Notes: generated by a model from the letters alone, not told the origin. 32,000 nt of DNA from Ammonifex degensii KC4 (GCF_000024605.1 NC_013385.1:1408175-1440174); one strand, 5' to 3'. Shown: positions 4,624-30,478, numbered from the stretch's first letter. Made by a program: numbers and translations.

Positions 4624-4644
4624 GGCTACTCCCCCTCCCTTAAG

Positions 4645-4673
4645 GCAAAATAAAAACCCCCTCCCCGGGGGTG
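4645..4673 (-). terminator. intrinsic terminator forming the riboswitch expression platform
   Basis: Minus strand reads CCCCCGGGGAGGGGG followed by TTTTTATTTT, located between the aptamer and the kamA SD. Confidence 0.6.
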
Positions 4674-4717
4674 CAGACTTTGGGCGTAGAGTCAGAAAAA
4701 GGGCGCATTTTCCCCTT

Positions 4718-4856
4718 TCTCTGCGGCTTTCCACGCTTACGGGGTTAGCTGACGGGTTCGGGTCGAAAGCCTGACCCTACCCGGCTGCAAAAAGCCGGGA
4801 TTCACCCCAAAAAGGTGGGTCCCCCGCTCCCTTCCCAGGGATTCAGCGTCCAGAGA
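4718..4856 (-). promoter_or_regulatory. c-di-AMP riboswitch (ydaO/yuaA class)
   Basis: The minus strand carries the blocks I recall as conserved in this class: GGAGCGGGGGACCCA, GGGGTGAATCC, GGGTAGGG and ACCCGAACCCGTCAGCTAACCCCGTAAGCG. A closing helix is formed by TCTCTG...CAGAGA. Confidence 0.8.
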
Positions 4857-4932
4857 TATTAAATTTTATTAAACTTCTGCTTAAAGCTTAACACGAAACC
4901 TGGTATCCTGTCAAATTCCTTGTTACTCCAGA

Positions 4933-10293: not shown

Positions 10294-10480
10294 TCACCAG
10301 CCTTACCTGCCGGGGCCTCGAGTTTCACCGTTGATTTTACTGAAAACTCAACAAAGGTGTCAAGCAAACTTCGTTCCAGCTCCTGACATCCTTAAAGCAT
10401 ATTTCCATGGAACTACTTCCGGAAACGATCCTTGCGATAAAATCTTTAATTAAAAGGGTTTCGGGCGCGAGGTGAAAAGC

Positions 10481-13400
10481 GTGGAGCTCTTCCTTCTAGC
10501 ACACGGCTGCCCTAACTGCAGCGGAAGCGTGACGGATGAGCGCCTAGCGGCAGGCCTTCCCTGCCCCCAGTGCCTTCCCCAAGCGGGAAACAATCTTTCC
10601 CTCGCTGCCGTTTGCTGCGCCCTGCGGAAGGAGAACAAAATAAGAGAGCTTTCCCCCTTCTGCCGGGCCGAAGAGGGGCTTAAAGAGTTCGAGCTTTTCT
10701 TCCGACAGGTCACCGGTCTTAATCTTTCTCCCTTGCAGCGGCTCTGGGCCAAGCGCTTCTTCCTGGAAGAACCCTTCGCCATCATAGCCCCTCCCGGCGT
10801 GGGGAAGACCACCTTCGGCCTGACAGTTTCTCTTTACAATCCCCAAAAATCTCTTATCCTGGTACCCACCCGCCTCCTGGTCTGGCAGGTGGCGGAAAAG
10901 CTTAGTCATTTTGCCGAAAAGGCAGGCAGCAAGAAGAAAATCCTGAGCATGACAGGCAAAGCCAAAGAGAAGAAAGAGCTTATGCAAAGCGAATACGATA
11001 TCCTGGTGGCCACCACGCAATTCTTTTACCGCCACTGGTCGGAAATCGCCTCCCACCCCATCACTCTAGTCTTTATCGACGACGTGGACGCCCTGCTCAA
11101 GAGCTCCCGCCAGGTAGACAGCCTCTTCTACTTCCTGGGCTACTCGCCGGAGGAAGTGGAAAGGGCTCTCCGCTCCCCGGAAGGGGAACCTAGAGAGGCC
11201 GGAAAGCGGCCGCAAAGGTTACTGATTCTATCTTCTGCCACCTTGAAACCCCGGACCAACCGGGTGCGCCTCTTCCAGCGGCTCATGGGCTTCTCCGTCC
11301 AGCGGGCCGTGAGCACCCAACGCCGGGTGGTGGATTGTTACGAAGAAGTGCCCGATTTCGCCCGGGCGCTGGCCCGTGCCGCCGAGCTCGTCCGGCAACT
11401 GGGACCCGGCGGGCTGGTTCTGGTAAGTCCGGAAGAAGGAAGGGAAGGGGTAAAGGAGGCAACCGCTTATCTCCAGGCCCAGGGGATAGAGGCCGAGAGT
11501 TACCTCGAACTTACTCCGGAAGAGCTGGTATCCCGGCTTGCGGAAGGCTCGCTTGAAGTGGCGGTAGGGCTGGCCCACCCCACCAACCCGCTGGTGAGGG
11601 GATTAGACCTGCCCCACGTCCTAAAGTACGTGATCTTTGTGGGAGCTCCCTCCCATTTCTTCCCGCTGGACCTCTCCCCAGCTCCCGGCGCTTTACATGG
11701 GCTGGGTCTGGCCCTCTTCCCCCTCTTCACGCCGGAAGAGCAGCGTCAGGTCCTGCGGGAGCTCAGGTATCTGCGCCCTTACCTTAACTTGCCCGCCGAT
11801 GCGGTATCCCGCTATCCCGCCCTGGAGAAACGGGTGCAAGCTTTCGCCTCTTTTCTCAAAGAAAAGCTCAAAGACCCCTCCTTCTGGGAAAAAATAAGGG
11901 CGGCCGAAGACCTAAACCTAAGAGAAGAAGAGGGAAAGCTTTATCTGGTCCTGGGAGACGCCACTACCTACCTGCAGGCTTCCGGGCGGGTCTCGCGCCT
12001 CACCGCCGCTGGTCTTACGCGCGGGCTGGCCATAACCCTGTGCACCGAGCGCCGGGTGCTCTTGAGTCTCAAGAAGCGGCTACGCGCTCTCACTCCAGCC
12101 GAGATAGAATTTATCCCCTTGCAGGAAGTTGACCTGGCCGGGGTCATGCGGGGTATCGAAGAAGATCGACGACGGATCAAAGCGGGGGAACTGGCGGATA
12201 AAGAAGGCCCCCGCACAGCGCTGGTGGTAGTGGAGTCTCCCCACAAGGCCCGCACCATTGCTTCTTTCTGGGGAAAGCCCGGAATTCGCCGGGTAAAAGG
12301 AGTGCTCGCTTATGAGATACCGGCAGATGAGCGGCACCTCATAATCACTGCTTCCCTGGGGCACGTCTTTAACCTCAGCCGGCAGCAGGGCTTCTTCGGC
12401 GTCCTCACCTTCAACCATCACTTCCTGCCCGTCTTCGACACCATAAAGATCTACCGGGAGACGGGCGAGGAGTTGGTGGACCCAGAGGAAGTGGCCCGCT
12501 ACCCGGAAGGAACGGTGTGGGACAAACAGGAAATCCTAAGGGGGTTGCAGCACCTGGCCTTCGAGGTGGACGAGGTTTACATAGCCAGCGACCCCGACGC
12601 GGAAGGAGAAAAGATCGCCTACGACCTTTACCTCTCTTTACGCCCCTTCAACCCCCACATCTACCGGCTGGAGTTCCACGAGGTTACCCCCTCCGCCTTC
12701 CGCCGGGCCCTAGAAAACCCAGGACAAGTGAATCTTTACCGCGTGCAGGCCCAGCTCACTCGGCGGGTGCTCGACCGCTGGGTAGGTTTCTGTCTCTCCC
12801 GCCGCCTTTGGCAAAAGTTCGGCAACCGCCACCTTTCCGCCGGAAGGGTTCAGACCCCGGTACTGGGGTGGGTAGTGGCCCGCGCCGAAGAAGGAAGGCA
12901 AAGAAAGGCGCGCCTGACCTTCTCCTTGGGAGAGGCTACGTTCACCTTGGAAGTGCCCGACCGAGAGCTGGGCCAGAAGATCTTCGGAGAACTGGAAAAG
13001 CTATCGTGGGAAATACTAGAGATAAGTGAGGAGGAACGGTCTCCTCTTCCTCCCTTCACCACGGACACCATACTAACCGAGGCGGCCCACCGACTGAGGC
13101 TTTCTGCGCCGGTTACCATGAAGCTCCTCCAGGAGCTTTTCGAACTGGGGTTTATCACCTACCACCGCACCGACTCCACCCGCGTCTCCGAAACGGGCCG
13201 CTTCCTCGTAGCCAAGCCCTTCATCCTCCAACACTACGGCGAGGAGCTCTTTCACCCACGCAGCTGGGGAGAAGGAGGGGCGCACGAAGCCATAAGGCCC
13301 ACCCGCCCTATGACCGAAGCCGAGCTTCGCTGGATGGTGGGAGCAGGGTTGGTAGACTTGAGCCAGGAAAGGGCACTAGAGCTTTACGGCCTCATCTTCC

Positions 13401-13912
13401 GGCGCTTCATGGCCTCGCAGATGGCTCCGGCCCGCGTGCGCAAGGCCAAGGTTCGCTTTCGGGTACCCAGCTACGCCTGGGAAACCGAGGTGGTGGTCGA
13501 GCAAATAGCGCCGGGCTTTGCCCTCCTGTGGCCTAACTTCTCCGTGACCGAGCTTCGTCCCGAGGCCCGGTTGACCGGCAAGGAGTACCGCGAACTCCCT
13601 CTGGCCGAACCTTACACCGAAGGCACCCTGGTTCAGGAAATGAAGCGGCAAGGCATAGGCCGCCCTTCTACCTACGCGGAAATCGTGGCCACCCTGCTTA
13701 ATCGCGGCTACCTGGTGGTCCGGGGAGGACGCCTTTACCCCACCCGCCTGGGCTTCAAAGTGTACCGCTACCTGAAAGAAAACTTTCCCGAGTACGCCGA
13801 CACCGCCTTAACCCGGGAGATAGAAGCGGCCATGGACCTCATCGCCGAGGGGAAGGAGGACTACCAGGAAGTGCTGCAGAAGCTGTATAAGGTCAGAGAA
13901 ATCCTCGCCTGA
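10481..13912 (+). CDS. rgy: reverse gyrase (helicase-like domain fused to topoisomerase IA)
   Basis: N-terminal Zn finger CPNCSG...CPQC; Walker A PPGVGKTT; DDVD; SSAT. Toprim motifs VVESPHKARTI and ASDPDAEGEKIA, and catalytic-Tyr motif ITYHRTDS. Start set at GTG 10481 (SD GAGGTG 6 nt upstream); GTG 10472 is the alternative. Confidence 0.95.
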   Translation: MELFLLAHGCPNCSGSVTDERLAAGLPCPQCLPQAGNNLSLAAVCCALRKENKIRELSPFCRAEEGLKEFELFFRQVTGLNLSPLQRLWAKRFFLEEPFAIIAPPGVGKTTFGLTVSLYNPQKSLILVPTRLLVWQVAEKLSHFAEKAGSKKKILSMTGKAKEKKELMQSEYDILVATTQFFYRHWSEIASHPITLVFIDDVDALLKSSRQVDSLFYFLGYSPEEVERALRSPEGEPREAGKRPQRLLILSSATLKPRTNRVRLFQRLMGFSVQRAVSTQRRVVDCYEEVPDFARALARAAELVRQLGPGGLVLVSPEEGREGVKEATAYLQAQGIEAESYLELTPEELVSRLAEGSLEVAVGLAHPTNPLVRGLDLPHVLKYVIFVGAPSHFFPLDLSPAPGALHGLGLALFPLFTPEEQRQVLRELRYLRPYLNLPADAVSRYPALEKRVQAFASFLKEKLKDPSFWEKIRAAEDLNLREEEGKLYLVLGDATTYLQASGRVSRLTAAGLTRGLAITLCTERRVLLSLKKRLRALTPAEIEFIPLQEVDLAGVMRGIEEDRRRIKAGELADKEGPRTALVVVESPHKARTIASFWGKPGIRRVKGVLAYEIPADERHLIITASLGHVFNLSRQQGFFGVLTFNHHFLPVFDTIKIYRETGEELVDPEEVARYPEGTVWDKQEILRGLQHLAFEVDEVYIASDPDAEGEKIAYDLYLSLRPFNPHIYRLEFHEVTPSAFRRALENPGQVNLYRVQAQLTRRVLDRWVGFCLSRRLWQKFGNRHLSAGRVQTPVLGWVVARAEEGRQRKARLTFSLGEATFTLEVPDRELGQKIFGELEKLSWEILEISEEERSPLPPFTTDTILTEAAHRLRLSAPVTMKLLQELFELGFITYHRTDSTRVSETGRFLVAKPFILQHYGEELFHPRSWGEGGAHEAIRPTRPMTEAELRWMVGAGLVDLSQERALELYGLIFRRFMASQMAPARVRKAKVRFRVPSYAWETEVVVEQIAPGFALLWPNFSVTELRPEARLTGKEYRELPLAEPYTEGTLVQEMKRQGIGRPSTYAEIVATLLNRGYLVVRGGRLYPTRLGFKVYRYLKENFPEYADTALTREIEAAMDLIAEGKEDYQEVLQKLYKVREILA

Positions 13913-18163: not shown

Positions 18164-18210
18164 TTGGTCTAGAGAAAGAGTATAAAAGGTAGTAGAAGGG
18201 GGTGGGAAGC

Positions 18211-18426
18211 ATGCGGCGCGAAGCACCTATCCTACACGTGGACGTAAAAACGGGCGAAATCTTAATAAACCGGCTGGATGAGTTGGGCCTGGTGACCTCG
18301 GGCGAGGAAAGGATCGACCGCACGGTGCCTCCCGATGTCTCCCATCCCGAACTCGATCGCTGGCTTATGCGCGAACGTCCCAAGCGCCAGATAACTGCCG
18401 TGCTCCGCTCGGTGTTGGCTTCTTAA
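18211..18426 (+). CDS. hypothetical 71-aa protein
   Basis: ATG 18211 is preceded by GAAGGGGGTGGGAAGC, with a candidate promoter upstream and a hairpin downstream. No family recognised. Confidence 0.35.
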   Translation: MRREAPILHVDVKTGEILINRLDELGLVTSGEERIDRTVPPDVSHPELDRWLMRERPKRQITAVLRSVLAS

Positions 18427-18436
18427 AAGATTTCAA

Positions 18437-18462
18437 AAGGGGAGCCCGTAAAAGCTCCCCTT
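18437..18462 (-). terminator. intrinsic terminator between convergent genes
   Basis: AAGGGGAGC-8 nt loop-GCTCCCCTT. A T-rich run (TTTTGAAATCTTTT) follows on the minus strand, downstream of the 18465 gene. Confidence 0.5.
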
Positions 18463-18464: not shown

Positions 18465-18794
18465 TTAATTTAGGTTGAGCTCCAGCATAAGGTCAACTAT
18501 CTTTCCCGCCACTCTTCCCGCGCCACACTTAGCCGAGGTACATAAAAGTCGGCTCAGCATCTGCAAAAGTTCCCGGTCTTCCGGCGAAAGTTCTTCTTTT
18601 TCTAGAAGTGAGCTTAAGGCAGCGGTCCCCATGTGTCCTACCGCACACTCGCCACAGCACTCCTGGGAAGCAAAATGCAAAAACTGCACGAGCACTTCTT
18701 TGAGCGGCGTCTCCTTGGTTACCGGAGGCCCGCTGCTTATCCCCATCACGCCCACCAGTCGTGCTATCTCGCCGGGATCAAGCCTTACTGTCAT
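18465..18794 (-). CDS. stand-alone NuoF-type 4Fe-4S-binding domain protein (variant Cys motif)
   Basis: ASQECCGECAVGHMG aligns with NuoF ESCGKCTPCREG, and the distal SAKCGAG aligns with S.CALG. 109 aa; SD AAAGGAGG upstream. Confidence 0.6.
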   Translation of the reverse strand: MTVRLDPGEIARLVGVMGISSGPPVTKETPLKEVLVQFLHFASQECCGECAVGHMGTAALSSLLEKEELSPEDRELLQMLSRLLCTSAKCGAGRVAGKIVDLMLELNLN

Positions 18795-18809
18795 CGTGCC
18801 AGTCCTCCT

Positions 18810-21242
18810 TTACCTGCCGGACTTCATCTCTTTAAGCCGCTTGTGCATATCGTTGACCGCGTCCACCCAGGCCCCGCCCGCCATCGATCCTATCTCCAGG
18901 AAGGCGAAACGGCGCGGGTCTATCCCCATGAGGGGTAGGAACTTCTCCCATATGGCCATGCGCCTGGCGACATGGACGTTGCCGTCGTGGTGATGGCAGT
19001 TGTATGGCGGACAGTAGCCCACGATGACCCCGTCGGCGCCATGAGCGAAGGCCTGAACCACGTACTGGGGGCTGACGCTGCCGCCACAGCGCACCCTGAT
19101 GATGCGCGTCCCTACCGGGTAGGAAAGCCGGGCCACACCTGCCATATCGGCCCCGGAATAGGCACACCAGTAGCAGAGGAAACCAACTATCCTGGGCTCG
19201 TCCGGCGGGACGTGTTTGAAGGCCACAGCGAGCTCCTTCTCCACCGACTCCTCGTTGAAGTTAGTTATCCTTATGGCACCCGTAGGACAGGCCGTGGTGC
19301 ATAGCCCGCAACCCTGGCAGAAAGCGGGGCTGGTGTAGTAGGTGCCGTCTTCCCGCCGCTGGATCACGCCGTGGGGACAGACTTTGGCGCAAAAACCGCA
19401 GCCACTGCACTTCTGAGGATCGACCTCGGCATAGTAGTCGAGCACCTCCACCTTCCCCTGCCGGTGATAAGGGAGGGCCCGTGCCACTGCCGCACTGGCT
19501 TCGGCGACACTGGGACTTACGGAGTTAAGGCCGGCTGCCGCTCCGACCACATAGAGCCGATGCACCGTTGATTCCGTGGGGCGGAAGACCCGGCAGCCCG
19601 GCGTATCGCCGTAAGGACCCTGGTTTATAGCGGGCAAACCCCACATGTCAAGCTTAAAGCCGAAAAGTTCAGCCAGGTTCGGTATATCCTTCCGGCTGCC
19701 CAGGGCAGTCGCTAGGACCAGGAGATCGGTCCGGAGCTTGAAGCCAGTGCCGGCAGCCCCCTCTAGGAACTCCACGTGAACCTCCAGAGTTTCCTCTTCT
19801 GCTGCCCGGGAAAGAGCAGTAACCCGGCCGCGTATTAGGTTTACCCCCGGCTGGTCCTTGATCCGACGGAAGAACTCCTCTGCCATTGGTCCGTTAGCCC
19901 GAATGTGAGAATAGATCAAGTTTATCTCCAGCTTGGGATTGAAGCGCTTGAGCAGGAAGATTTGCTTGAGGGTGTAAGCACAACAAATTTTGGAGCAGTA
20001 GGCTTTGGGCCCCTCCAGGGGCTGGAAGGGGAAACAGCCGTACTCACAGCGAGGATCGATCTCTCCCGTCTTCTCCCGCGACCCGCAGCAGAGCACGAAG
20101 GTAACGCTGCGGGGCTTGAAAGGCAACCGCTGGAGTTGAAAGCCGTATCTTTCCAGTTTAAGCGAGGTTATAATGCGCGAATCCCAGACCTCTTCCAAAA
20201 AGTCCAGCTTGACAGCAGGTATGGGGAGTTCCTCAAAGCCGGTGGCTAGCACCACACTGCCCACCCGCAGGGTTCTTTCCTGTGGTGCCGCCTGGAGATC
20301 TATGGCTTGAGCCGGACAGGCTCCGACGCAAGCCCCGCAGCGGGTGCAGGAATTGGGATCGATGGTGTAGCCCGGGGGTAGGGCCATGGGATGGGGCTTG
20401 TAGGCGGCCTTGCGGCGGCTAATTCCCATATCGAAATCGTTTTCCACTTCCACCGGACAGATTGCCGCGCAGCGCCCGCACTCCACGCACTTCTGGGAAT
20501 TGACAAACTGCGGCTCCTGCCAGAGGGTAACCAGGAAATTACCCCCGTCCTTTTTTACCTCCTTTACCCAGGTTCTGGTGAGCACCGTTATGTTGGGGTG
20601 GAGGTTGACGAGCTTCCCGATGTTGGGCATGATGCAGGAAGTAGCGCAGGAGGAAGGCCAGCTTTCATTCTGGTAAAGCATCTCCAACCGGGCCATCTGT
20701 CCACCGAGGTGCGACTCCTTCTCCACCAGCGTCACCTTTATGCCATTTCTGGCGTAGTCCAGCGCCGCCTGCATACCCGCCGGCCCTCCACCTATCACCA
20801 AAGCCTCATCGGCGATTTTGTAAGAGGCCGGATTACGCGGGCGGTTGTAAAGGACTCGCGCATGAGCCATGGCCACCAGGTCCACGGCCTTACCGGTGGC
20901 CAGCTCCTTTTGGCCGGGGTGGATCCAGGCACACTGCTCCCTTATGTTGGCTATTTCTAAAGCCGTTGTATCGCGCCCCACCTCGCGCAGCGCCCGCTTG
21001 AAGCGGAGTTCCGGAGCTGCCAGGCTGGAGCGTGGGGAACAGCCCGCCACCACCACGCGGTCAAGCTCCAGCTCCTGCACCATCTTCTGGAATAAGGCCA
21101 CACCCTCCTCCTGGCAAAGAAGAGAGTGGCGCTTGACGGTCACCACGCCGGGAAGCCGGCCACACTCCTCCACCAGGCGGTCAAAGTCCAGGTCCTGCGC
21201 CAAAGTGCCTTGGCAGTCGCAAACGAAGATCCCTACGCGCAA
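18810..21242 (-). CDS. hdrA: HdrA-like FAD/FeS oxidoreductase fused to a C-terminal MvhD (FlpD) domain
   Basis: FAD fold VIGGGPAGMQAALDYARNGIKVTLVEKESHLGGQ. HdrA Cys signature CCGSRE...YCSKICC. Ferredoxin motifs CVECGRCAAICP, CTRCGACVGACP, CSGCGFCAKVCP and CQGCGLCTTACP. MvhD-like FLCYWCAYSGADMAG...RVRCGGSVSPQYVVQAFAHGADGVIVGYC. TTG start 21242 with AGGGAGG upstream. Confidence 0.9.
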   Translation of the reverse strand: MRVGIFVCDCQGTLAQDLDFDRLVEECGRLPGVVTVKRHSLLCQEEGVALFQKMVQELELDRVVVAGCSPRSSLAAPELRFKRALREVGRDTTALEIANIREQCAWIHPGQKELATGKAVDLVAMAHARVLYNRPRNPASYKIADEALVIGGGPAGMQAALDYARNGIKVTLVEKESHLGGQMARLEMLYQNESWPSSCATSCIMPNIGKLVNLHPNITVLTRTWVKEVKKDGGNFLVTLWQEPQFVNSQKCVECGRCAAICPVEVENDFDMGISRRKAAYKPHPMALPPGYTIDPNSCTRCGACVGACPAQAIDLQAAPQERTLRVGSVVLATGFEELPIPAVKLDFLEEVWDSRIITSLKLERYGFQLQRLPFKPRSVTFVLCCGSREKTGEIDPRCEYGCFPFQPLEGPKAYCSKICCAYTLKQIFLLKRFNPKLEINLIYSHIRANGPMAEEFFRRIKDQPGVNLIRGRVTALSRAAEEETLEVHVEFLEGAAGTGFKLRTDLLVLATALGSRKDIPNLAELFGFKLDMWGLPAINQGPYGDTPGCRVFRPTESTVHRLYVVGAAAGLNSVSPSVAEASAAVARALPYHRQGKVEVLDYYAEVDPQKCSGCGFCAKVCPHGVIQRREDGTYYTSPAFCQGCGLCTTACPTGAIRITNFNEESVEKELAVAFKHVPPDEPRIVGFLCYWCAYSGADMAGVARLSYPVGTRIIRVRCGGSVSPQYVVQAFAHGADGVIVGYCPPYNCHHHDGNVHVARRMAIWEKFLPLMGIDPRRFAFLEIGSMAGGAWVDAVNDMHKRLKEMKSGR

Positions 21243-21289
21243 GAAAGCATTCCTCCCTTCGTGAGCTCTACCTCCGGGAGTATCTTGCT

Positions 21290-21976
21290 CTAAAGTCTAA
21301 CACTTCCTACCTGCCTCGACAAGCTTTTTTCACCAAAGGAAAGAGCCTGGCGGGGGCAGGCCGCCACGCAGGAGCCGCATTTCAGGCAGTCGCCGTCCCC
21401 CATTACTCCTTGCTGGCGGAAAAAGTGGGGCTGGAGCTTGAGGGGGCAGAAGCGGGAGCACACCCCACAACCCACGCAGGAGGGGGCCACCAGAAGCGGC
21501 TTCTTCCCGCGACCGAATAAGTTCGCCAAGGTGCCCATAGGACAGATCAGGCACCAGGCACGCGGGTGGAAAATGAGCCCCAGCAAAACGCCCACCAGGG
21601 TGGTCACGGTTAAAACCTTAACCAGCGCCAACCCCATGGCGGGAATATTCCCCCAGTTAAGGTACCACTGGACGCCTATGACGGCAAAAATCAGGATCAA
21701 AAAGAAGATCCTCACAGGCCAACTCCTGAAGAAAGCAGGGGTGGAGCGCTTGGCCGAGAGAGAGGACAAAAACAGATCGAAAAAGGCACCGCGGGGACAC
21801 ATCCAGTCGCACCAGGCCCGCCCCCGCGAAAAGGAAAGACCCACCGCCCCCAGCATGCATCCCAGCAGCAGGAAGCCCAGCCACGGATAAAACCACCCCC
21901 CTACCGCTACCAAGGGAAGCCCGATCCAGGTGTAGAGCTGGCGCTTCCTTCTCTCAAGAAGCTTTTCCCGCAGCAA
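21290..21976 (-). CDS. NapH/MauN-like integral-membrane polyferredoxin
   Basis: TM helices with CDWMCPRG and CLICPMG motifs, plus C-terminal CVGCGVCSRFCP and CLKCGSCVAACP. Start set at TTG 21976 (GGAGGAGG 7 nt upstream). The ORF-track start at 22042 lies inside the promoter. Confidence 0.75.
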   Translation of the reverse strand: MLREKLLERRKRQLYTWIGLPLVAVGGWFYPWLGFLLLGCMLGAVGLSFSRGRAWCDWMCPRGAFFDLFLSSLSAKRSTPAFFRSWPVRIFFLILIFAVIGVQWYLNWGNIPAMGLALVKVLTVTTLVGVLLGLIFHPRAWCLICPMGTLANLFGRGKKPLLVAPSCVGCGVCSRFCPLKLQPHFFRQQGVMGDGDCLKCGSCVAACPRQALSFGEKSLSRQVGSVRL

Positions 21977-22019
21977 ACTCTCGCCTCCTCCGATATACCC
22001 TATGGGGTATCTAGAAGCA

Positions 22020-22049
22020 ATTATAGAAGCCTCCCCTCCCACCTGTCAA
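22020..22049 (-). promoter_or_regulatory. near-consensus sigma-70-type promoter upstream of the NapH-like gene
   Basis: Minus strand reads TTGACA (22049..22044)-18 nt-TATAAT (22025..22020). Confidence 0.55.
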
Positions 22050-22084
22050 CTGGTGGAAGCGGGAGGCTCCAAATTTTCAACGCG

Positions 22085-24631
22085 CTAGCTCTGGGTTGCG
22101 TTCTCCCCGGTTTCCTGTTCTTCTAGAGCTTTAACCTTTTCCTCGTACCACACCGGATGGTGAACCTTGGCCCACTCGGGCGAGACCTTGCCTGTCACCA
22201 GCAGGCGCCAGGTACCGGGGTTGGCCAGCGTGCCCAGGTAGGCGTGGCCCAGCACCGCCAGGATCAAGATCAGCGCTGAGATACCGTGCAGTGGCACCAT
22301 CCAGTGCCAGAGGGCCGGACTTACCTTCTGGCCGAAGATCATTACCACGCCGCTTATGCCGATAGCCAGGGTGAGGAAGGTGGTCAGCCAGTAGAAAAGC
22401 TTCTGTCCGGCGTTGAACTTGCCTGCCGGGGCATGCACCTCCCGGCGGCTGAAGTAGCCGCCCATGACCCGCAGCCACTCCCGGTCGTAGGAAGCGAAGC
22501 GAGCGTCCTTCCACCACCGTACGATGGCCCACAGGGAGCTCAACCCGAAAACCAAACCCATCGACCAGTGCCACACTCGCGCCGTCTCGTAGCTGCCGAA
22601 GAGAAACTCTATTGCTCCCACACGGTGGAAGGCGAAGAGCAGACCGGTAACCGCCAGGAAGATGAAGCTCAGCATCCTCACCAAGTGAACCACACGCTCA
22701 TCCAGGGAGAAGAGTTCTAGCCCAGCTGGGCACTGGGTGAGGCAAGTTCCCCGCGGCCCGATGACCACGTAGTGCAGGGAGAAAGCCAGGAGCAAGCCCG
22801 CCAGCAGCAGGGCGAAAAGCGGCGAGAGAAGGGTCAGGTACAGGTTGGTGAAGGAGAAGCTGAGCGGCGTCCAGCCCAGAAGCCAGGCCTGCTTGATCGT
22901 GACCGGCTTCCCGTCAGGGCCGTAGGGATCGACCACTATATCCTGGTAAAGCTTTCCCTGCTTGCTGTGGCAATCGGAGCAACCCTTGGCACCCAGAGCC
23001 ATCCCCGTCGGCGACACGTTGTGGTTGATGCAGAAAGTAGGCTCCTCCAGACTCGGATCCTCAGTCGCCTTCAGATTGCCGTTTCGGTCAAGCTCCCAGA
23101 CCTTCCCGCCCTTGTAATAGACAGGCGAGATCTGCTTGAAACGGCCGGGATTCTTTGCAAGCACCTGCCGGCAGGTGGTAAGCAGGAGTTTGATCTCCTC
23201 CGGCGTGTTTACCTCGGGCACGCCGTCGCCGTTATCGTCGCGGATCTTGCCCTTCAGCCGCTCCCAGACGGGCTTGATCTCCTTGAAGAAGAGCGGATAG
23301 ATTATCCCGTCCGCGTCGCGGTTACCCACCCACACTGCATGGATGACGTTTACCGGCTGGATCAAGCCCTTACGGGGATGCCTTAGCCACTGCGGCTGCC
23401 AAACGGCGGCGTCTCCTATCTTCTTACCCACCAGCGGCACGTCCACCATGGTTCCGGTGACCACATCGGCCGCCAGATCAGGGGCCCGGCCGATCTGGGG
23501 GATGTGGCAGGCCTCGCATGCCAGGCGCTTCAGGTGGCTGGGCGGGATTTTCTCATGCTTGGGCCGCGGTGCACCCATGATCCCCTTTTCGTGGCACTCC
23601 CGGCAGGAGTAGACGGTGTTCCGGAGCTCTGACGCAACAGTCTCCCCTAGATCGTCCCCCATGGCTATCTGGTGGTTGATGGTAGCGATCCCCTTAGCCT
23701 GATCGTTCACGAGAAAGTGGCAGGTAGTGCACTTGAGCCCGCGCTGCTGGTGAAGATCGGGATTCAGCCGATCGCCCCAGCTGAAACCACGCTTCTTCTG
23801 GTCGGAGATACCGTGGCAGAAAAGGCAGTTTCTAGGCTCCGGACTGGTTACGAAGGCAGCGTGGCTTATGGTGCCGTCGGGGTTAAACTTCTTGAGATCG
23901 TACTTCACCTTGGGCGTTTCCCCTTGGGCCACCGCTCCGGTCACCTGCCCCAAGCCCGCTCCCACGGTGGCCGCCCACTTATAGTTGCGCAACTTCAGTT
24001 GTTTGGTCCGCGCTTGCCAGTCATAACCGGGATAGTGGCAGAGCAGGCAGTCAGCCTCCACCACTCCGCTCTTGTCCCATGCGCTCTGGAAGTAATCCCC
24101 ATCCAAAGTGGTGCGCAGCTCCGGATTGGCCTTCAAACGCAGATCGTAGCGCTGGCCCTCCCGGTCGTACTCCATTCCTCCTCCGCCGGGGTGGCAGGAA
24201 CCGCAGGTAGGCTTCGGATCGGCAGGATTGCCAAATCCTATGAAGTCATAAGGAGTAAGGTCGATGGCTGCAGCGTTAGAGTTCTGCTTGGCCGCCAACT
24301 GGCGGTAGGAAGGTGGTCACCACTTCCCCATCATCCCGTTAGACAGGACCCAGGGCTTTTCCTTGCTGTAGCCGTCTTTGATGACATCCCAGCCCTGCTG
24401 AAAGTGGTAACCTTTGGTGATAGCCTCGTAATCGTGGCAGGCGCCGCAGGTCTGGCGGGGACTGTAGGGTTGATCGGCGTTCTCTCCCGTTACGGGGTTA
24501 ATGATGGCTCCCGTCTCGGTACGCAGGTAAAAGAACGGAGCCTTACCTGCTCCCCGCACCGCGGCCGGGAACGAGATCAACCCCACAAGCAGCAGCACAG
24601 TCAGGAAAGGTACCCCCTTCCGGTAGCGCAT
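22085..24631 (-). CDS. octaheme cytochrome c fused to an FdnI/PhsC-type cytochrome b; contains an in-frame TGA at 24319..24317 (candidate Sec/read-through, or a nonsense mutation)
   Basis: Signal peptide MRYRKGVPFLTVLLLVGLISFPAAVRGAG. Eight CxxCH motifs: CGACH | CGSCH, CLLCH, CLFCH, CTTCH, CRECH, CEACH, CSDCH. One linker TM and four cytochrome-b-like TMs (HLVRMLSFIFLAVTG, GKFNAGQKLFYW, HGISALILILAVLGHAYLG). The two track ORFs (24317..24631 and 22085..24298) share one frame. Confidence 0.75.
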
Positions 24632-24681: not shown

Positions 24682-24711
24682 AGTATATACCCTGGGGTGT
24701 AAAGTAGTCAA
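24682..24711 (-). promoter_or_regulatory. candidate promoter of the cytochrome gene
   Basis: Minus strand reads TTGACT (24711..24706)-18 nt-TATACT (24687..24682). The imperfect palindrome TACACCC-CA-GGGTATA overlaps the spacer and -10 box. Confidence 0.35.
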
Positions 24712-24882
24712 AGCGCGCCCAAAGGAGAAAATAAGGAAGGAAATTTAGAACAAGAAAGCTGGCGCTGGAACTTGCCCCAATACTTCTCCCCAGGCTACCA
24801 ACCGCAAATTGCCTCCGCATTTCGGAGGAATGATAAGATTGAGAAAGGAACTCCTTCCACTCTGAAGTCGAGGAGGGAAAAA

Positions 24883-26244
24883 GTGAAGGTTAATTATGAT
24901 GTGGTGGTAATAGGTGGAGGAACAGCAGGAGTGACCGCCGCCACTACGGCGCGGCGCCACTACCCGGATAAAAAGGTTTTGCTTATCCGGCGGGAGGAAA
25001 AGACCCTTATCCCCTGCGGCATCCCCTACATGTTTGGAGTCTTAGACGATCCCTGCAAAAATGTAAATCCAGACTATATCCTGAGCATCCGGGGAATCGA
25101 AGTCAAAGTGGGAGAAGTAAAGGAGATCGTGCGGCAGGATAAAAAGCTGGTGATGACCTCAGGGGAGGAAATCGGTTATGACCGCCTAGTCCTGGCTACC
25201 GGTTCCCGCCCCGCCTTGCCCGCCATACCTGGCATCGACCAGGAAAACGTTTTTTGGATAAAGAAGGAGCTGCCCTATCTCCAGAAAGTGCTTGCCGCCC
25301 TGGCCGAAGCCCGCCGGGTAGTGATAATCGGCGGGGGATTCGTAGGAGTGGAACTGGCAGAGCAAATCAGAAAATACCGGCAACTGGAGGTCACCATAGT
25401 AGAAATTCTGCCTTATTGTCTCTACACTTCCTTCGACGAAGAGTTCTGCTTCGAAGCCGAGCGAGAACTCCAGGCCCTAGGGGTGGACATACTCACCGAA
25501 AAGAAAGTGGCGGAACTGGCCGGCAATGGCAAAGTAAAAGAGGTAAGGCTGGAAGACGGCACCGTGCTGCCCGCCGACGTGGTCATAATAACCACGGGGG
25601 TGCGGCCGGTGACCGAGCTGGCCGAGGCTGCCGGGCTTTCTCTGGGTCCCACCGGGGGAATCCTGGTGGACCGAACTATGGCCACCTCCGATCCTAACAT
25701 CTTCGCCTGCGGCGACTGCGCCGAAAAGTTCTCCTTCTTCGGCGGTAACCCGGTGCGTATACGCTTAGCCTCGGTGGCCGCCATGGAGGCGCGGGTAGCC
25801 GGCGCCAACCTCTTCGCCCGCCGCCGGGAGAACCCCGGTACGGTAGGGGTCTTCTCCACCAGGATCGGCGATAAGGCCTTCGGCGCCGCCGGGCTCATCG
25901 AGCGGATAGCCGAGGAGGAAGGATACGACGTGCTGCTGGGGGAGGCTTCTGCCCCCAACCGCCACCCTAGCGCCCTTCCCGGAACCTTCGACACCAAGGT
26001 GAAACTGGTGTTTGACCGCTACACCGGCATCCTGCTGGGAGGGCAAGCGGTAGGCAGCGAAAGCGTGGGCGAGCTCGTGAATCTCTTGAGCGCTTGTCTG
26101 CTGCACCGCATGACGGCCGTGGAAATGGCCGCCTTCCAGATGGGGACTCACCCCCTCCTCACCCCCTCCCCGCCGGCCTACCCGCTAGTAGTGGCGGCAG
26201 AGGAGGCAGCGGTGGCCAAGCTGGAGAAGAAACGGGAAGAGTAA
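24883..26244 (+). CDS. FAD-dependent pyridine nucleotide-disulfide oxidoreductase (NADH oxidase / CoA-disulfide reductase family)
   Basis: YDVVVIGGGTAGV, a single redox Cys in LIPCGIPYMF, a second dinucleotide fold VVIIGGGFVGVELAE, and ACGDCA. Start set at GTG 24883 (AGGAGGG 5 nt upstream). The ORF-track start at 24772 adds 37 unsupported residues. Confidence 0.85.
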   Translation: MKVNYDVVVIGGGTAGVTAATTARRHYPDKKVLLIRREEKTLIPCGIPYMFGVLDDPCKNVNPDYILSIRGIEVKVGEVKEIVRQDKKLVMTSGEEIGYDRLVLATGSRPALPAIPGIDQENVFWIKKELPYLQKVLAALAEARRVVIIGGGFVGVELAEQIRKYRQLEVTIVEILPYCLYTSFDEEFCFEAERELQALGVDILTEKKVAELAGNGKVKEVRLEDGTVLPADVVIITTGVRPVTELAEAAGLSLGPTGGILVDRTMATSDPNIFACGDCAEKFSFFGGNPVRIRLASVAAMEARVAGANLFARRRENPGTVGVFSTRIGDKAFGAAGLIERIAEEEGYDVLLGEASAPNRHPSALPGTFDTKVKLVFDRYTGILLGGQAVGSESVGELVNLLSACLLHRMTAVEMAAFQMGTHPLLTPSPPAYPLVVAAEEAAVAKLEKKREE

Positions 26245-26431: not shown

Positions 26432-27199
26432 CTATTTCTCGGTCACTGCCTGACCAGGTTCCAACGGCACAAGCCTCGCCTTGCCCCAGACTCCCAGGTG
26501 CTTCCCGATGATGACCACCGCTCCTAGAACTCCGGGAATTTTCTGGATAAAAGAAAGGGCTTCTTCTATATCTTCAGGCGTCTGGACCCGGTTGCCCAAG
26601 GCAGTAGCCGCCGCGTCGGCGAGGGTAGCGGTAGAGGCCAGCACCACCGCCGCGTCGGCCTTTCCAAAGCTTAAGGAGTGTCCCACCGTGCCTGAAGAGG
26701 TACAAATTCCCAGAGGAGTAAGATTGGCCGGAATAGCTAGCGCCACCCGGGAGGAGAGGGGAGAATTGCCAGCATAGATGCCCACCGTCCTCTGGCGCGT
26801 GCTCTTAAGGTAAATGTCCCCGCCGTTTTCCACCACTACCTCCCGGGAAAAACGGCCCAGATACTTGCCTACCAGATCGGCGAAGGCCCCAGCCACCGCC
26901 GCCATCGGTCCTACCCCGACAAGCCTCGCCGCCTCCGCCATGGCCCAAGCTATCGGTGGAGCATCAGGAAGGACCTGGTGAGGCGTGAGCGCAGTGGCAA
27001 AAGCGGGATCGCGCCTCAAGTATTCTTCCAAAAGCTGCCGCTGCTCCCGCACCAATTTCTCCACTTTCCAGACCAAGGAGGGGGAGAAACGCTCACGCCG
27101 GACCCCCAGCAAAAGATCGGTTTCCTTGACCTTTACCTCGAAAAAGGTAAGATCCTCTTGCCTTAGCCAAGCCCGGTAAACCCGGCGCTTTTCCGGCAC
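26432..27199 (-). CDS. UPF0280 / COG2122 ApbE-like protein
   Basis: 255 aa, directly downstream of the COG1900 and NIL-ferredoxin genes, the genomic association known for this family. The sequence pattern (GGDIY..., ICTSSGTVGHSLSFGKADA) is consistent from memory. Confidence 0.7.
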   Translation of the reverse strand: MPEKRRVYRAWLRQEDLTFFEVKVKETDLLLGVRRERFSPSLVWKVEKLVREQRQLLEEYLRRDPAFATALTPHQVLPDAPPIAWAMAEAARLVGVGPMAAVAGAFADLVGKYLGRFSREVVVENGGDIYLKSTRQRTVGIYAGNSPLSSRVALAIPANLTPLGICTSSGTVGHSLSFGKADAAVVLASTATLADAAATALGNRVQTPEDIEEALSFIQKIPGVLGAVVIIGKHLGVWGKARLVPLEPGQAVTEK

Positions 27200-27200: not shown

Positions 27201-27602
27201 CTAGAAGCGTACCTCCATGGCCCTCATGGGGCAAGCCCGGACGCAGAGCTGACAGACCACGCAGGCCTCCCCATCAAAACGAACCAGCATGGAAGGGCGC
27301 TCAAAGTGAAGCGCTCCTGTAGGGCAGATGGCCGTGCAGGCTCCGCAATGGGTACAGCGCTCCTCGTTCCGGATGATCTCTTCCGTGAGAGGCTGCACCG
27401 CTACCCCCTGGCGGTGCAAATAGTCAAGCCCCTCTTTTACCCTTTCGCCGGTGACCTCCAGCACCATCATCCCTTCCTTGTGAGGGTTGATGTTGGCCTT
27501 GAGGATGTTGATCATCAGGTCGTAATCCTTTACCAGACGATAAATTATCGGCTTGTCCGCTATGGCGGCAGGGAAGCGCAGCACTACCTTGCTGGGGGGC
27601 AT
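27201..27602 (-). CDS. NIL domain + 2x[4Fe-4S] ferredoxin protein
   Basis: N-terminal NIL-like domain (KPIIYRLVKDYDLMINILKANI) followed by CTHCGACTAICP and CVVCQLCVRACP. Confidence 0.85.
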   Translation of the reverse strand: MPPSKVVLRFPAAIADKPIIYRLVKDYDLMINILKANINPHKEGMMVLEVTGERVKEGLDYLHRQGVAVQPLTEEIIRNEERCTHCGACTAICPTGALHFERPSMLVRFDGEACVVCQLCVRACPMRAMEVRF

Positions 27603-28822
27603 TACCCTCTACCCTCCTTCACGCCTCTTATCTCCAGGGTCTTGGGGACAATACCGGCTTCAGGCCCCGGTAGCGGAGCTACCGGCTCCGTCAGCAAGAA
27701 CTTCCCTTCTTGTATCCACTCCTTCAGAATCTGACAAATCTCCCGCGCCCGCGCATAACTCGACAAGGAAGCGGTGGGAACTTCTTTGCCGTTAATGGTT
27801 ATCTTGCCCGAGCGCAGCTCGGCGTAGCTCACCCAACCTAGATTCCCCGGCCGTCTCTGGGGGTAGGCCTCAGCGTAGTCCACGATGGGCGCGTAAAGCT
27901 CCCGGTCGGGACGGGAAGCGTAGTAGCAGACCTCTTCGTCTAGGATGGGTATGGCCACTCCTATTCCCACCGATAGAGAAACCCCGTAACCCAACATGCT
28001 TGTTCCCCTCAACCAGCGGGGGCTCATCTGTTTGAGGTCGCCCATCACCGCCAGCGTGCCGCCGGAGGGTATGCGTACCGCTCCGGCGGGGAGATCGGGG
28101 ATGGAGGGGAAGTGCTGGGTGCCGTGGTTCACCACGTAGCCTATCCCGCCTCCCAGGAATATCCTGGTGCCTATGCCTATAGTGCGGAAGAAGGGATCCT
28201 TGAGCAAGGGGCTGAGCTGCCCAGAAGTAGAGTAGTGGGCGTTGCCCAGCCGCGGCTTCAGAACCCCCATGTAGGTGTAAAGGGTGCGGTCACCCGTGTT
28301 AACCGCGCAAGCGTAGTTCTGGTAGGCGTTGCGCGGGTTGAAAAGGAAAGCCTCGTTAATATCATCCAGGGTGATGACCGTCTCTATCTCCCGGCGGGGA
28401 TAGCAGTCCGTGCCGTAACCTATAGCCCTTAGCTTTACCGGACGGCGTGCCACCAGGTCTTCAATCACGTGCCCGCCGCCGTAGCGAAATTCACCCGGCG
28501 GATCGGTGTTAAGCGGATCTCCTTCCCGCACTGCCGTAGCCCCCAGGAAGGCATCCACCGCGGCCAAACCGGCGTAGGCAGGAACGTCGTTGAGCCAGAC
28601 CCGGAAAAACTTGATCCGAGGGGCACCATGTCCAAAGTTGAAAAAGGCCCCGGAAGAACACATGGGAGCGAAAGTGCCCGTGGTGACCACGTCCACCTCC
28701 CGGGCCACCTGTTTTACCCCTTTCTCTTCTACCAGCGACACCAGCTCTTCCGCGGTCACCACCACTACTTTGCCAGCCTTAATCTTTTCGTTGATTTCGG
28801 CAAAAGTCCTGTAGGCACCCAT
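27602..28822 (-). CDS. homocysteine biosynthesis protein (DUF39 / COG1900)
   Basis: N-terminus KTFAEINEKIKAGKVVVVTAEE...DVVTTGTFAPMCSSGAFFNFGH is typical of COG1900. The gene is preceded by a SAM riboswitch. Confidence 0.85.
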   Translation of the reverse strand: MGAYRTFAEINEKIKAGKVVVVTAEELVSLVEEKGVKQVAREVDVVTTGTFAPMCSSGAFFNFGHGAPRIKFFRVWLNDVPAYAGLAAVDAFLGATAVREGDPLNTDPPGEFRYGGGHVIEDLVARRPVKLRAIGYGTDCYPRREIETVITLDDINEAFLFNPRNAYQNYACAVNTGDRTLYTYMGVLKPRLGNAHYSTSGQLSPLLKDPFFRTIGIGTRIFLGGGIGYVVNHGTQHFPSIPDLPAGAVRIPSGGTLAVMGDLKQMSPRWLRGTSMLGYGVSLSVGIGVAIPILDEEVCYYASRPDRELYAPIVDYAEAYPQRRPGNLGWVSYAELRSGKITINGKEVPTASLSSYARAREICQILKEWIQEGKFLLTEPVAPLPGPEAGIVPKTLEIRGVKEGRG

Positions 28823-28894: not shown

Positions 28895-28907
28895 GCGCTC
28901 TTATCCA

Positions 28908-29038
28908 CCAGGTGAGAATGCCTTTTCGGCTCTTCTCCCTGCAGGGATTGGCACCTGGCCTGCCTCTTAAGGACAGGCTGGTTGCCGGGCTTCATCGGGC
29001 CTGTTCCCTCCGCCACTCTCGATAAGAGCCCGTCCAAA
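28908..29038 (-). promoter_or_regulatory. SAM-I (S-box) riboswitch
   Basis: Minus strand reads CTCTTATCGAGAGTGGCGGAGGGAACAGGCCCGATGAAGCCCGGCAACC...GGTGCCAATCCCTGCAG...GGATAAGAG, a textbook S-box core. Confidence 0.93.
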
Positions 29039-29123: not shown

Positions 29124-30380
29124 CCAGAGTTTCGTTCACAGAGGTTTTTGAAGTTGAAGAGCGTATTAAAGAGGGTGGGGATCCCCTCCCTTCTACACTT
29201 CTGGCAAGTGTACCTTAAAGAAAGGAGGAACCCCACCCGATGACATTATACCAGCAACTTAAGAGGAGCGGAAACCCCCACGCAATCGCCCAAACCGTGG
29301 CCTCCCTCCTCACCACCTGTAGCCCTAAAGAGGTAGCCCGCATAATGGGCTGCTCCGTCCGCTGGATCTATAAACTGCGCAAACGCCTAAACGAATCCGG
29401 CGGAAACTTGTCCGGTTGTATCCTCCCTCGCGGCCCCAAAAAAAGAATGCCCAACCGTACCCCTCAAGAACTCGAAGCCCTAGTCGTAAAACTCGCTCAG
29501 GAAACTAACCTGGGCCCTAAACGCCTCGCCTCCCTCCTGTACCAAAGCCTTAAAATTAAGCTCTCCCCCTACACCATACGAAATATCCTCAAACGCCACC
29601 ACATCCGCTGCCGCAAACGCCAAAGCAAAACAGGCTCCCGAAAATACTGGACCGACGTGCAGGCCTTCGCACCCTTCTCCTTCTGGCAGGTCGATGTAAA
29701 ACACATAGCCGATAAGTCAGCTCTGCCGGCCCAAGCCTACTCCTCTATCCTCAAAAACCGCCTACCCCGTTACCAATTCACCGCTATCGATGTTCGAACA
29801 AGAGTGCGGTTCATAGCCTTCGCCTATTCCCTCTCCTTCGCCAACGGAATCGCTTTCCTTGTGCTCCTGGCAAACTGGCTTAAAACCTTCGGCCTTAATC
29901 AAACAATCTTTATCCAGACCGATAATGGCTCGGAGTTCGGTGGCCCTCCTAACTCGAGAAAGCGTAAACTCATGTCCCTTATCTTCTCTCGCCTTGACTG
30001 CCAGCTGCTTAACATACCCGCAGGCAGAAAAGAAGCCAACGGCTATGTAGAAAGATCACACCGCACCGACGATGAAGAGTTCTACATCCCCTACCTGGCA
30101 GGTATCAGAAGCCAGAAGGATTTCCTTATCTCTGCCCAGAGGTGGATCCTTTACTACAACTACCAGCGTCCACATCTGGGCCGGGAACTGAACGGGAAAA
30201 CTCCTATGGAAATAGCGACCTCGCTTTCCCACTACCATCCGGCTATAGGGGCTATGCCGGTGGTAGTCCTGGATCACCTGGCTCCGCACATCTTCGATGC
30301 CTACAAACTCTCTACTCTCCCGTGGGATTACCCACCCAAAAATGAAAGCCTCGCTGTGAACGAAACCCTGGCTCAATACA
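29124..30380 (+). mobile_element. IS481-family insertion sequence (1257 bp)
   Basis: About 32-bp imperfect terminal inverted repeats: TGTAGAAGGGCCAGAGTTTCGTTCACAGAGG at the left and the reverse complement of TGTATTGAGCCAGGGTTTCGTTCACAGCGAGG at the right. A single DDE transposase ORF, flanked by a 15-bp direct repeat. Confidence 0.85.
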
Positions 30381-30478
30381 CACTCGGTAAAGCCAAGGCT
30401 TCACCTATCTCGCGGAAGAGGGGAGCGGCATCTTCTCCGCCTCCTCGCCCCCCTTCCTCCATGACCACCACCACGTAG
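29240..30478 (+). CDS. IS481-family DDE transposase (HTH + rve integrase core)
   Basis: N-terminal HTH region. DDE triad context WQVDVKHI, IQTDNGSEF and NGYVERSHRT. The ORF has no stop inside the IS; its last ~33 codons (30381..30478) are read-through into flanking DNA. Confidence 0.9.
   Translation: MTLYQQLKRSGNPHAIAQTVASLLTTCSPKEVARIMGCSVRWIYKLRKRLNESGGNLSGCILPRGPKKRMPNRTPQELEALVVKLAQETNLGPKRLASLLYQSLKIKLSPYTIRNILKRHHIRCRKRQSKTGSRKYWTDVQAFAPFSFWQVDVKHIADKSALPAQAYSSILKNRLPRYQFTAIDVRTRVRFIAFAYSLSFANGIAFLVLLANWLKTFGLNQTIFIQTDNGSEFGGPPNSRKRKLMSLIFSRLDCQLLNIPAGRKEANGYVERSHRTDDEEFYIPYLAGIRSQKDFLISAQRWILYYNYQRPHLGRELNGKTPMEIATSLSHYHPAIGAMPVVVLDHLAPHIFDAYKLSTLPWDYPPKNESLAVNETLAQYTLGKAKASPISRKRGAASSPPPRPPSSMTTTT

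Follow-up and report, generated by a model that had tools for sequence, protein, structure and literature searches.

Four co-oriented genes on the minus strand of Ammonifex degensii KC4 DNA bring together an octaheme c/cytochrome b protein (gene 1), a NapH-like membrane polyferredoxin (gene 2), an HdrA-MvhD fusion (gene 3) and a NuoF-type Fe-S domain (gene 4), and raise the question of what such an assembly of redox modules might do. They occupy positions 18465-24631 of the 32,000-nt stretch analysed here (GCF_000024605.1 NC_013385.1:1408175-1440174), which we call the window and whose gene products are 100% identical to GenBank proteins of A. degensii KC4. A preliminary description made from the sequence had reported the four genes with these positions and domains, which we confirm, and had read the cassette as a transmembrane conduit between an extracytoplasmic reductase, the quinone pool and a cytoplasmic flavin module. 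That interpretation holds only in part: the combination is indeed unusual and the heme domain resembles that of octaheme tetrathionate reductase (OTR), but the four genes do not travel together and a promoter within the cassette makes an obligatory operon less likely. Our main finding concerns gene 1, which, as far as can be judged from sequence, is probably a new, widespread and mis-annotated selenocysteine (Sec)-containing octaheme-cytochrome b enzyme.

Gene 1 (22085-24631, minus strand; 848 codons including that for the predicted Sec) consists of two open reading frames (ORFs) in one frame with a TGA between them. This TGA, the predicted Sec codon (24317-24319, minus strand), corresponds to residue 105 and lies between hemes 1 and 2 (...GMMGKW-U-PPSYRQLAAK...). 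The 104-aa piece upstream of it contains the signal peptide and heme 1, the downstream part the remaining seven hemes and the cytochrome b. GenBank and PGAP annotate only a 696-aa downstream piece, under the name "formate dehydrogenase gamma". Since the downstream ORF, which begins with a TTG, possesses neither a signal peptide nor a Shine-Dalgarno sequence, it cannot be an independent exported cytochrome. The earlier view of gene 1 as an exported octaheme cytochrome c anchored by a cytochrome b is correct with respect to the eight CxxCH motifs and the FdnI-type b domain, but with the frame broken by the TGA the terms "octaheme" and "exported" apply only if this codon is decoded. The codon itself, the most informative feature for the chemistry of gene 1, had been overlooked.

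Five loci share this in-frame TGA at an identical position. They represent two distant lineages and comprise the window, A. thiophilus, Desulfothermobacter acidiphilus and two loci from metagenome-assembled genomes (MAGs; L008 and L009) with a protein identity to gene 1 of ~50%; the coding sequence is kept on both sides of the TGA. A putative Sec insertion sequence (SECIS) hairpin, CCGCC-AGUU-GGCGG (24292-24305, minus strand), begins 11 nt after the UGA. All five TGA-type loci have a hairpin built on CGCCAGUUGGCG with an AGUU loop, located 11-14 nt after the UGA, and the flanking pairs covary, being C-G in Ammonifex and runs of U-A in the MAGs. The folding energy after position 105 ranges from -9.6 to -12.7 kcal/mol in the TGA-type genes versus -2.9 to -6.7 kcal/mol in the Cys-type genes; indeed, the hairpin is absent from the five Cys-type loci, where the same RQLA or RQLP peptide is encoded by other codons. 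No SECIS family of Rfam reached threshold at the hairpin site.

The residue at position 105 was surveyed in the top 120 homologues of gene 1. It is Tyr in 88, Cys in 15, Ser in four, Gly in two and Arg in one, while nine more gene calls start just after this position. Cys was confirmed at the DNA level in Cys-type homologues; a genome-collection scan for gene 1 returned seven loci, the Cys-type matches among them being biased by the Cys that the query carried at position 105. When the 104-aa N-terminal piece was searched against 1.84 billion representatives of 50%-identity clusters, 50 of the best 150, which we inspected, were short proteins with their end exactly at ...GKW/GRW. TGA-type genes must therefore be numerous and diverse. 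In average-linkage clustering of the homologues, the Sec-type proteins split into two groups, both of them separate from the large Tyr/Cys cluster. Of the full-length homologues, the one closest to gene 1 (L017, 8001-10472) has a GGA at the site, one step from TGA, and retains the identical hairpin, pointing either to a recent Sec-to-Gly change or to an assembly error. The same locus contains at 1131-2117 an AIRS-domain gene resembling an N-terminally truncated SelD, followed by a TusA-DsrE fusion. Because the TGA is shared by five loci, because the hairpin is specific to the TGA-type genes, because Cys-type homologues exist and because one third of the best N-terminal matches end at that very codon, gene 1 is probably an unannotated selenoprotein with Sec at residue 105.

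Hydropathy predicts for the decoded protein a signal peptide (aa 1-27), an extracytoplasmic octaheme c domain (~aa 28-590), one linker transmembrane (TM) helix and a four-helix diheme cytochrome b of the FdnI type (~aa 640-835), a layout which would place the heme c domain outside the membrane with the topology of FdnI. The C-terminal part matches the PF01292/TIGR01583 cytochrome b domain, for TIGR01583 above the cutoff (136.5 versus 115.85 bits). Its last 200 residues align end to end with FdnI (formate dehydrogenase-N gamma, 1kqf_C), and H649, H688, H782 and H796 coincide with all four heme-b ligand positions. The name "formate dehydrogenase subunit gamma" is nevertheless misleading, since the electron partner is the fused octaheme domain in every locus examined; FdnG/FdnH (FdhA/B) were found neither in ten related loci nor among the large ORFs scanned in the window, the scope to which all our absence calls for partner genes refer. 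As gene 1 comes with its own quinone-reactive anchor, it would need no further membrane partner.

The eight CxxCH motifs (residues 62, 143, 195, 269, 301, 343, 372 and 551) are spread over ~560 residues, or ~70 residues per heme. An AlphaFold2 model of the segment between the UGA and the first TM helix (pLDDT 89, pTM 0.85) was compared by Foldseek with solved structures, and 1sp3, an OTR, was the sole match below E 0.001 (E 1.5e-7, 21% identity over 445 columns, with low TM-scores of 0.32-0.35). The OTR family profile TIGR04315 gives a partial match (3e-13) over residues 191-383, comprising hemes 3-7, with 49.6 bits under a 375-bit cutoff. The PDB was also searched by sequence, both with the gene 1 protein by itself and with a family profile. 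FdnI was returned and, for the family profile, weak NrfA heme-pair matches; neither OTR nor MccSep, a Sec-dependent multiheme reductase discussed below, was found in this way. Only six His residues outside the heme motifs are conserved in the family for eight hemes, so that at least two hemes require other ligands or have an open site; K115 and K280 are invariant and would be candidate ligands. Judging from the model, the c domain is distantly related to the catalytic octaheme enzymes of the OTR/NrfA type and larger than these, enzyme-like and not an electron wire. The reductase-like character ascribed to it earlier is thus supported, both by the spacing of the hemes (~70 residues each, against 28 in CbcL) and by the single structural match.

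Gene 1 has in common with the Shewanella oneidensis OTR (1sp3; TIGR04315) that eight c hemes are housed in an enzyme-sized domain. It has the eight CxxCH motifs and an OTR-like fold, while its score lies far below the family cutoff. It differs from OTR by ~120 additional residues in the N-terminal part and by its fusion to a membrane cytochrome b, whereas OTR is soluble. Sec-containing TIGR04315 members annotated in GenBank are listed in a 2026 review of prokaryotic selenoproteins, where they make up, with ExtKL and the GSU2204 family, the three cytochrome-related entries; the review has no cytochrome b fusion and no "formate dehydrogenase gamma" entry (PMC13188914). The deep-Sep paper does not mention cytochromes, and a literature search for Ammonifex together with multiheme/HdrA or with selenocysteine found nothing relevant. 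In our view the octaheme-b fusion with its predicted Sec belongs to known kinds of protein, of which it is a variant that has so far gone unrecognised.

The c-plus-b architecture as such is known from proteins of the CbcL (Geobacter GSU0274)/MtoC/MtrH type, in which an exported multiheme c is fused to a C-terminal HydC/FdnI-like diheme b (PMC6295460, PMC9129911), and for these as for gene 1 a link to the quinone pool is presumed. However, CbcL is an electron wire with nine bis-His hemes packed into 250 residues (PMC9129911), whereas gene 1 is far less compact and has six conserved distal His residues and a predicted Sec. Sec-dependent polysulfide reduction by a multiheme protein has a precedent in MccSep/ExtKL (Geobacter GSU2937-2936), a pentaheme enzyme essential for sulfur respiration (2026; PMC13510729). 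Like gene 1, MccSep is an exported multiheme c whose annotation is split by an in-frame UGA followed by a SECIS-like hairpin, it has Cys-type homologues and it occurs in sulfur-reducing anaerobes (PMC13510729). There is, however, no detectable sequence relation between the two (NF040886 is not among the NCBIfam matches of gene 1 and the PDB sequence searches gave no match to MccSep). MccSep is a soluble tetramer with five hemes that carries its Sec in a C-terminal Ig-like domain beside a His/Cys heme, whereas the Sec of gene 1 would lie near the N-terminus, without a conserved partner Cys, in a protein fused to a cytochrome b.

The three genes that follow encode a different set of modules. Gene 2 (21290-21976, minus strand) specifies a NapH/MauN-type membrane polyferredoxin of 228 aa with ~4 TM segments. 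It starts at the TTG at 21976, preceded by the ribosome binding site (RBS) GGAGGAGG, which agrees with the length given in GenBank and leaves a gap of 108 nt to gene 1. The protein has two Fer4_5 domains and two C-x2-C-x2-C-x3-CP [4Fe-4S] motifs and thereby the layout of NapH, with TM segments, two Cys-x(2-3)-Cys-Pro motifs and two [4Fe-4S] motifs, while its scores remain below the NapH cutoffs (61.9 versus 213 bits for TIGR02163, 52.3 versus 234 bits for NF007013) and NapG/NapA are missing from the scanned ORFs. The previous assignment as NapH-type with two CxxCP motifs needs correction in one detail, as one of the motifs is CX3CP (CDWMCP) and only the other CX2CP. The cytoplasmic Fe-S clusters of NapH-type proteins are suited to electron hand-over to a soluble partner; to our knowledge, no NapH-HdrA pairing has been characterised.

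Gene 3 (18810-21242, minus strand) encodes an 810-aa HdrA2-like flavo-iron-sulfur protein fused to MvhD and devoid of TM segments. As described before, it combines a flavin adenine dinucleotide (FAD) site (GGGPAG), the HdrA Cys signature, four ferredoxin motifs and the MvhD module (FlpD at E 3e-43); the Cys motif, CGSRE...CSKICC, has a linker longer than in the canonical HdrA form (CxGxR[DE]...CSxxCC). The protein is collinear with HdrA2 of NF040770 at 612 bits, below the cutoff of 1100, and the Methanosarcina HdrA2 is likewise an HdrA-MvhD fusion. With the HdrABC-MvhAGD complex gene 3 shares the FAD site, the Cys cluster motif, two ferredoxin-domain pairs and the MvhD module. The reported lack of HdrB/HdrC (CCG-domain), MvhA/MvhG and NapA/NapG in the window was also our result. 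Gene 4 (18465-18794, minus strand; RBS AGGAGG) is a stand-alone NuoF/HydB C-terminal Fe-S domain of 109 aa, which matches PF10589 (E 9e-10) and can be aligned with the Fe-S domain at the C-terminus of HydB/NfnB/NuoF. This agrees with its earlier classification, except that the third canonical Cys is replaced; C46, C47, C50, C90 and H54 are conserved in three orthologues. Genes 2, 3 and 4 follow each other closely, the gaps being 47 and 15 nt, and have good RBSs. Tight spacing had been claimed for the entire cassette but does not extend to the gap between genes 1 and 2, which in addition contains a promoter-like site.

Only in three related hot-spring bacteria, A. degensii, A. thiophilus and D. 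acidiphilus, did we find the cassette, with its gene order preserved (L001 and L002 are the cassette-bearing loci besides the window); 15 further loci, each with a homologue of gene 1, 2 or 3 at its centre, lack it. It is not a common characterised operon, and the combination was rightly called unfamiliar. However, co-occurrence of the four genes across genomes, proposed together with the conduit as a means of checking it, fails outside the Ammonifex/Desulfothermobacter lineage. Within this lineage, synteny extends to a CoADR-like gene, DUF1848, a major facilitator superfamily (MFS) transporter and the HcyBio operon. Since these unrelated flanking genes are syntenic too, we rejected synteny in three genomes as proof of an operon and consider the conserved order of the cassette weak evidence.

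Outside the lineage the components go separate ways. The octaheme-b gene has no cassette neighbour and no conserved neighbour in any of the eight loci compared (L003-L009 and L017). The four closest HdrA-MvhD relatives checked (L010, L011, L015 and L016; 56-58% identity) lie beside Crp/Fnr-type regulators, without other cassette genes, and a relative with 40% identity adjoins MvhG/MvhA hydrogenase genes. Genes of the TauE family (sulfite/anion exporter) are also present near the HdrA-MvhD relatives of L015 and L016. NapH-like relatives (~63% identity) in Desulfofundulus (L014) and Thermodesulfitimonas (L013) have no adjacent HdrA or octaheme-b gene. The Desulfofundulus gene has no related neighbour at all, while in Thermodesulfitimonas autotrophica (L013, 7001-9246) the NapH-like homologue is followed by a gene for a 309-aa NIR_SIR protein (small sulfite/nitrite reductase-like) and a DsrE gene. 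A homologue of gene 4 was not found in the compared loci outside the three-genome lineage. Divergent from the Desulfofundulus NapH-like gene there is a 94-codon gene (L014, 6427-6711, minus strand) with an in-frame TGA between ...VMENCGG and GSTTF..., whose product, to judge from its sequence, is probably a small selenoprotein.

Transcription signals point in the same direction. In the gap between genes 1 and 2, the promoter-like site P2 (TTGACA-18-TATAAT; 22020-22049, minus strand) matches the sigma-70 consensus at 12/12 positions. Its hexamers are invariant in all three cassette genomes and a palindrome next to it is conserved; this operator-like element, ATACCC-N4-GGGTAT (21995-22010), starts 10 nt downstream of the P2 -10 box. 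Upstream of gene 1, the promoter-like site P1 (TTGACT-18-TATACT; 24682-24711, minus strand) lies within a 140-nt divergent region shared with a CoADR/Nox-type flavoprotein gene, and both of its hexamers are conserved in A. thiophilus and D. acidiphilus. It is overlapped by a degenerate palindrome (24687-24702) with two mismatches to ATACCC-N4-GGGTAT; the P1 regions of L001 and L002 have an exact ATACC-N4-GGTAT just downstream of the -10 box. The motif ATACC-N4-6-GGTAT, expected 0.02 times per window, precedes both gene 1 and gene 2 in L001 (1888-1901 and 4573-4588) and in L002 (9929-9942 and 12613-12628). The same palindrome in the same placement is found before the NapH-like homologue of L013 (6904-6919), and upstream of that of L014 there is an exact palindrome further upstream (6729-6744), plus a related TACCCCAGGGGGTA element downstream of a promoter-like site. 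The palindrome at P1 and P2 resembles the type-2 operators of the CsoR family, ATATACCCCTNAGGGGTATAT, with a spacing shorter than their TAC-N9-GTA (PMC3902906); a search for the CsoR/DUF156-type regulator signature in the window and all loci found none.

Directly after the gene 4 stop there is an intrinsic-terminator hairpin (18437-18462), which on the minus strand reads AAGGGGAGC...GCTCCCCTT with TTTT behind it. A 74-aa ORF (18202-18426, plus strand) is convergent with gene 4, and the hairpin appears to be a common, bidirectional terminator. A perfect conserved promoter with a palindrome between genes 1 and 2 indicates that genes 2-4 probably form a unit of their own, and two transcription units, gene 1 and genes 2-4, are the most economical reading of these signals; the related palindromes suggest that both may be co-regulated. 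Just after the gene 1 stop and spanning the P2 -35 box, an inverted repeat of 10 pairs including one G-U, GGAGCCTCCC ... GGGAGGCTTC (22033-22076, minus strand), was read by eye and could attenuate read-through from gene 1.

We therefore favour, with an even chance of being right, a reading in which the cassette comprises two adjacent, probably co-regulated units, gene 1 as a quinol-linked selenoenzyme and genes 2-4 as a NapH/HdrA2 module. The first unit, gene 1 alone, would be a self-sufficient menaquinol:acceptor oxidoreductase. Its FdnI-type b domain would oxidise menaquinol and the electrons would pass along the c hemes to an active site with Sec105, which would take the place of the Tyr of most homologues and the Cys of some. 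By analogy with MccSep and other Sec redox enzymes, such a site should allow nucleophilic S/Se chemistry on a chalcogen substrate, with polysulfide, tetrathionate/thiosulfate and selenite as candidates. In the second unit, provided with its own consensus promoter, operator and terminator, the NapH-like protein might form a link between the quinone pool and cytoplasmic clusters through which the HdrA flavin gains or loses electrons. Side by side the two units are seen only in the Ammonifex/Desulfothermobacter lineage, and their likeliest connection would be the quinone pool and a shared repressor. Sec insertion, the substrate, the direction of electron flow and the coupling between the units are what we infer; bifurcation by the HdrA module and a physical complex of the four proteins we consider speculation.

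By the same analogy, gene 1 probably acts on sulfur or selenium compounds. Both Ammonifex species respire sulfate or thiosulfate with H2 or formate. D. acidiphilus, too, respires sulfate/thiosulfate with H2 or formate (PMC8539903). The neighbours of homologues described above, TauE, DsrE and a small sulfite-reductase-like protein, are circumstantial evidence for sulfur chemistry. The gene divergent from gene 1 (24772-26244, plus strand) encodes a flavoprotein of the CoADR/NADH oxidase type (Pyr_redox_2 plus a dimerisation domain, single-Cys motif IPCGIPY), the enzyme class of the NSR/Npsr sulfur reductases, and may be viewed as equally circumstantial; a CoADR-type gene adjoining gene 1 is conserved in L001 and L002.

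Several observations weigh against this reading. Neither selA, selB, selC nor selD was found among the window ORFs scanned, and the only tRNA in the window is a tRNA-Leu. Position 105 is occupied by Tyr in about three quarters of the close homologues and by Gly, Ser or Arg in a few, so that a catalytic role of this residue is one we infer only. No partner Cys is conserved among the Sec-type proteins and the mechanism, therefore, need not resemble that of MccSep. The relatives OTR and NrfA are promiscuous toward nitrogen oxyanions and A. degensii ammonifies nitrate. As to regulation, A. degensii itself has a degenerate palindrome at gene 1, and the half-sites are not equally spaced at the two promoters (TAC-N6-GTA at P1, TAC-N8-GTA at P2); for this reason we rejected the idea that the two palindromes are identical operators and claim only a related motif. 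Finally, we detected no terminator in the gap between genes 1 and 2, so that transcription could run through all four genes.

The last point would also suit a rather unlikely but still sensible alternative, in which all four proteins form one transmembrane complex. The cytochrome b and the NapH-like protein would then wire an outer octaheme reductase to the HdrA-MvhD flavin module in the cytoplasm, which might bifurcate or confurcate electrons. The adjacency of the four genes on one strand and in the same order in three species, the related palindromes at both promoters, the aptitude of the NapH-type clusters for electron transfer to a soluble partner and the presence of an HdrA-MvhD without its usual HdrBC or MvhAG partners among the window ORFs are all compatible with such a complex. 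However, outside the lineage its components occur without other cassette genes as neighbours, and a synteny reaching well beyond the cassette takes much of the meaning from the conserved order. Moreover, genes 2-4 are set apart from gene 1 by a promoter that is both perfect and conserved, and gene 1 has a quinone-reactive anchor of its own.

It seems quite improbable to us that the octaheme-b protein is instead a nitrite/hydroxylamine reductase serving nitrate ammonification in A. degensii, with residue 105 having only a structural or tuning role. The nitrate ammonification of this organism, the OTR-like fold, the weak NrfA heme-pair similarity and the location of the L017 homologue a few kb from NrfH/NrfA-like and Nap-like genes would fit such a function, and OTR-type enzymes are reported to use nitrite as well as thiosulfate (PMC13510729). 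On the other hand, D. acidiphilus, described as a sulfate/thiosulfate respirer, has kept the gene and its UGA just as well, and the sole biochemically characterised multiheme selenoprotein uses Sec for S-S/Se chemistry. The gene is also conserved in A. thiophilus, which is not known to reduce nitrate, and the window ORFs scanned include no nitrogen-cycle genes. That the TGA is a true stop and gene 1 a split pair (a 104-aa monoheme cytochrome and a 737-aa protein) or a pseudogene would agree with the annotation of the downstream part alone and with the prevalence of Tyr over Cys in the homologues, but is highly improbable in view of the conservation of the TGA and its flanking coding sequence in distant lineages, a downstream part with seven c-heme motifs yet no signal peptide or RBS, the TGA-specific hairpin after the codon and the existence of Cys-type homologues.

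The rest of the window is mostly of a housekeeping nature, with ffh, rimM, trmD, reverse gyrase, the MFS transporter, DUF1848, the CoADR/Nox-type flavoprotein, the homocysteine-biosynthesis operon and transposases. The reverse gyrase gene (10472-13912, plus strand) encodes a helicase plus topoisomerase of 1146 aa, as fits a hyperthermophile. Two riboswitches were recognised. A cyclic di-AMP (c-di-AMP) riboswitch (4719-4858, minus strand; 105 bits) is located directly upstream of a lysine-2,3-aminomutase-like radical S-adenosylmethionine (SAM) gene (3340-4734, minus strand). A SAM riboswitch (28898-29028, minus strand) precedes the operon formed by 27602-28822, 27201-27602 and 26432-27199, which encodes HcyBio (homocysteine biosynthesis), a NIL-domain ferredoxin and a conserved 255-aa protein of the PRK04334 family. 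Mobile elements flank the region at a distance, namely a TnpB/Cas12f-like gene (563-1879, minus strand) and an rve-type transposase gene (29240-30478, plus strand).

Gene 1 points to a second case of a Sec multiheme cytochrome, unrelated in sequence to MccSep and equipped with its own quinol dehydrogenase. Its family has been hidden in the databases behind shortened gene calls named "formate dehydrogenase gamma", and must be broad, since in dozens of 50%-identity clusters the representative terminates at this UGA. The natural series of Sec, Cys and Tyr at one position should be of value for dissecting how a multiheme enzyme chooses among sulfur, selenium and nitrogen substrates. From adjacency alone, the lineage-specific placement of gene 1 beside a NapH/HdrA2 module is a candidate for a new quinone-to-flavin link. 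A more ambitious picture, which we think unlikely in its entirety, would be that of a widespread new selenoprotein family whose members are octaheme reductases, OTR-like and linked to quinol. The substrate chemistry would depend on whether a single active-site position holds Sec, Cys or Tyr, and in Ammonifex/Desulfothermobacter the enzyme would also be wired through the NapH-type protein to an HdrA2-type flavin module, so as to couple low-potential cytoplasmic electrons, the menaquinone pool and extracytoplasmic S/Se reduction. Thermophilic Gram-positive sulfate reducers have few cytochromes, and gene 1 could explain the respiratory reduction of sulfur compounds in these organisms.

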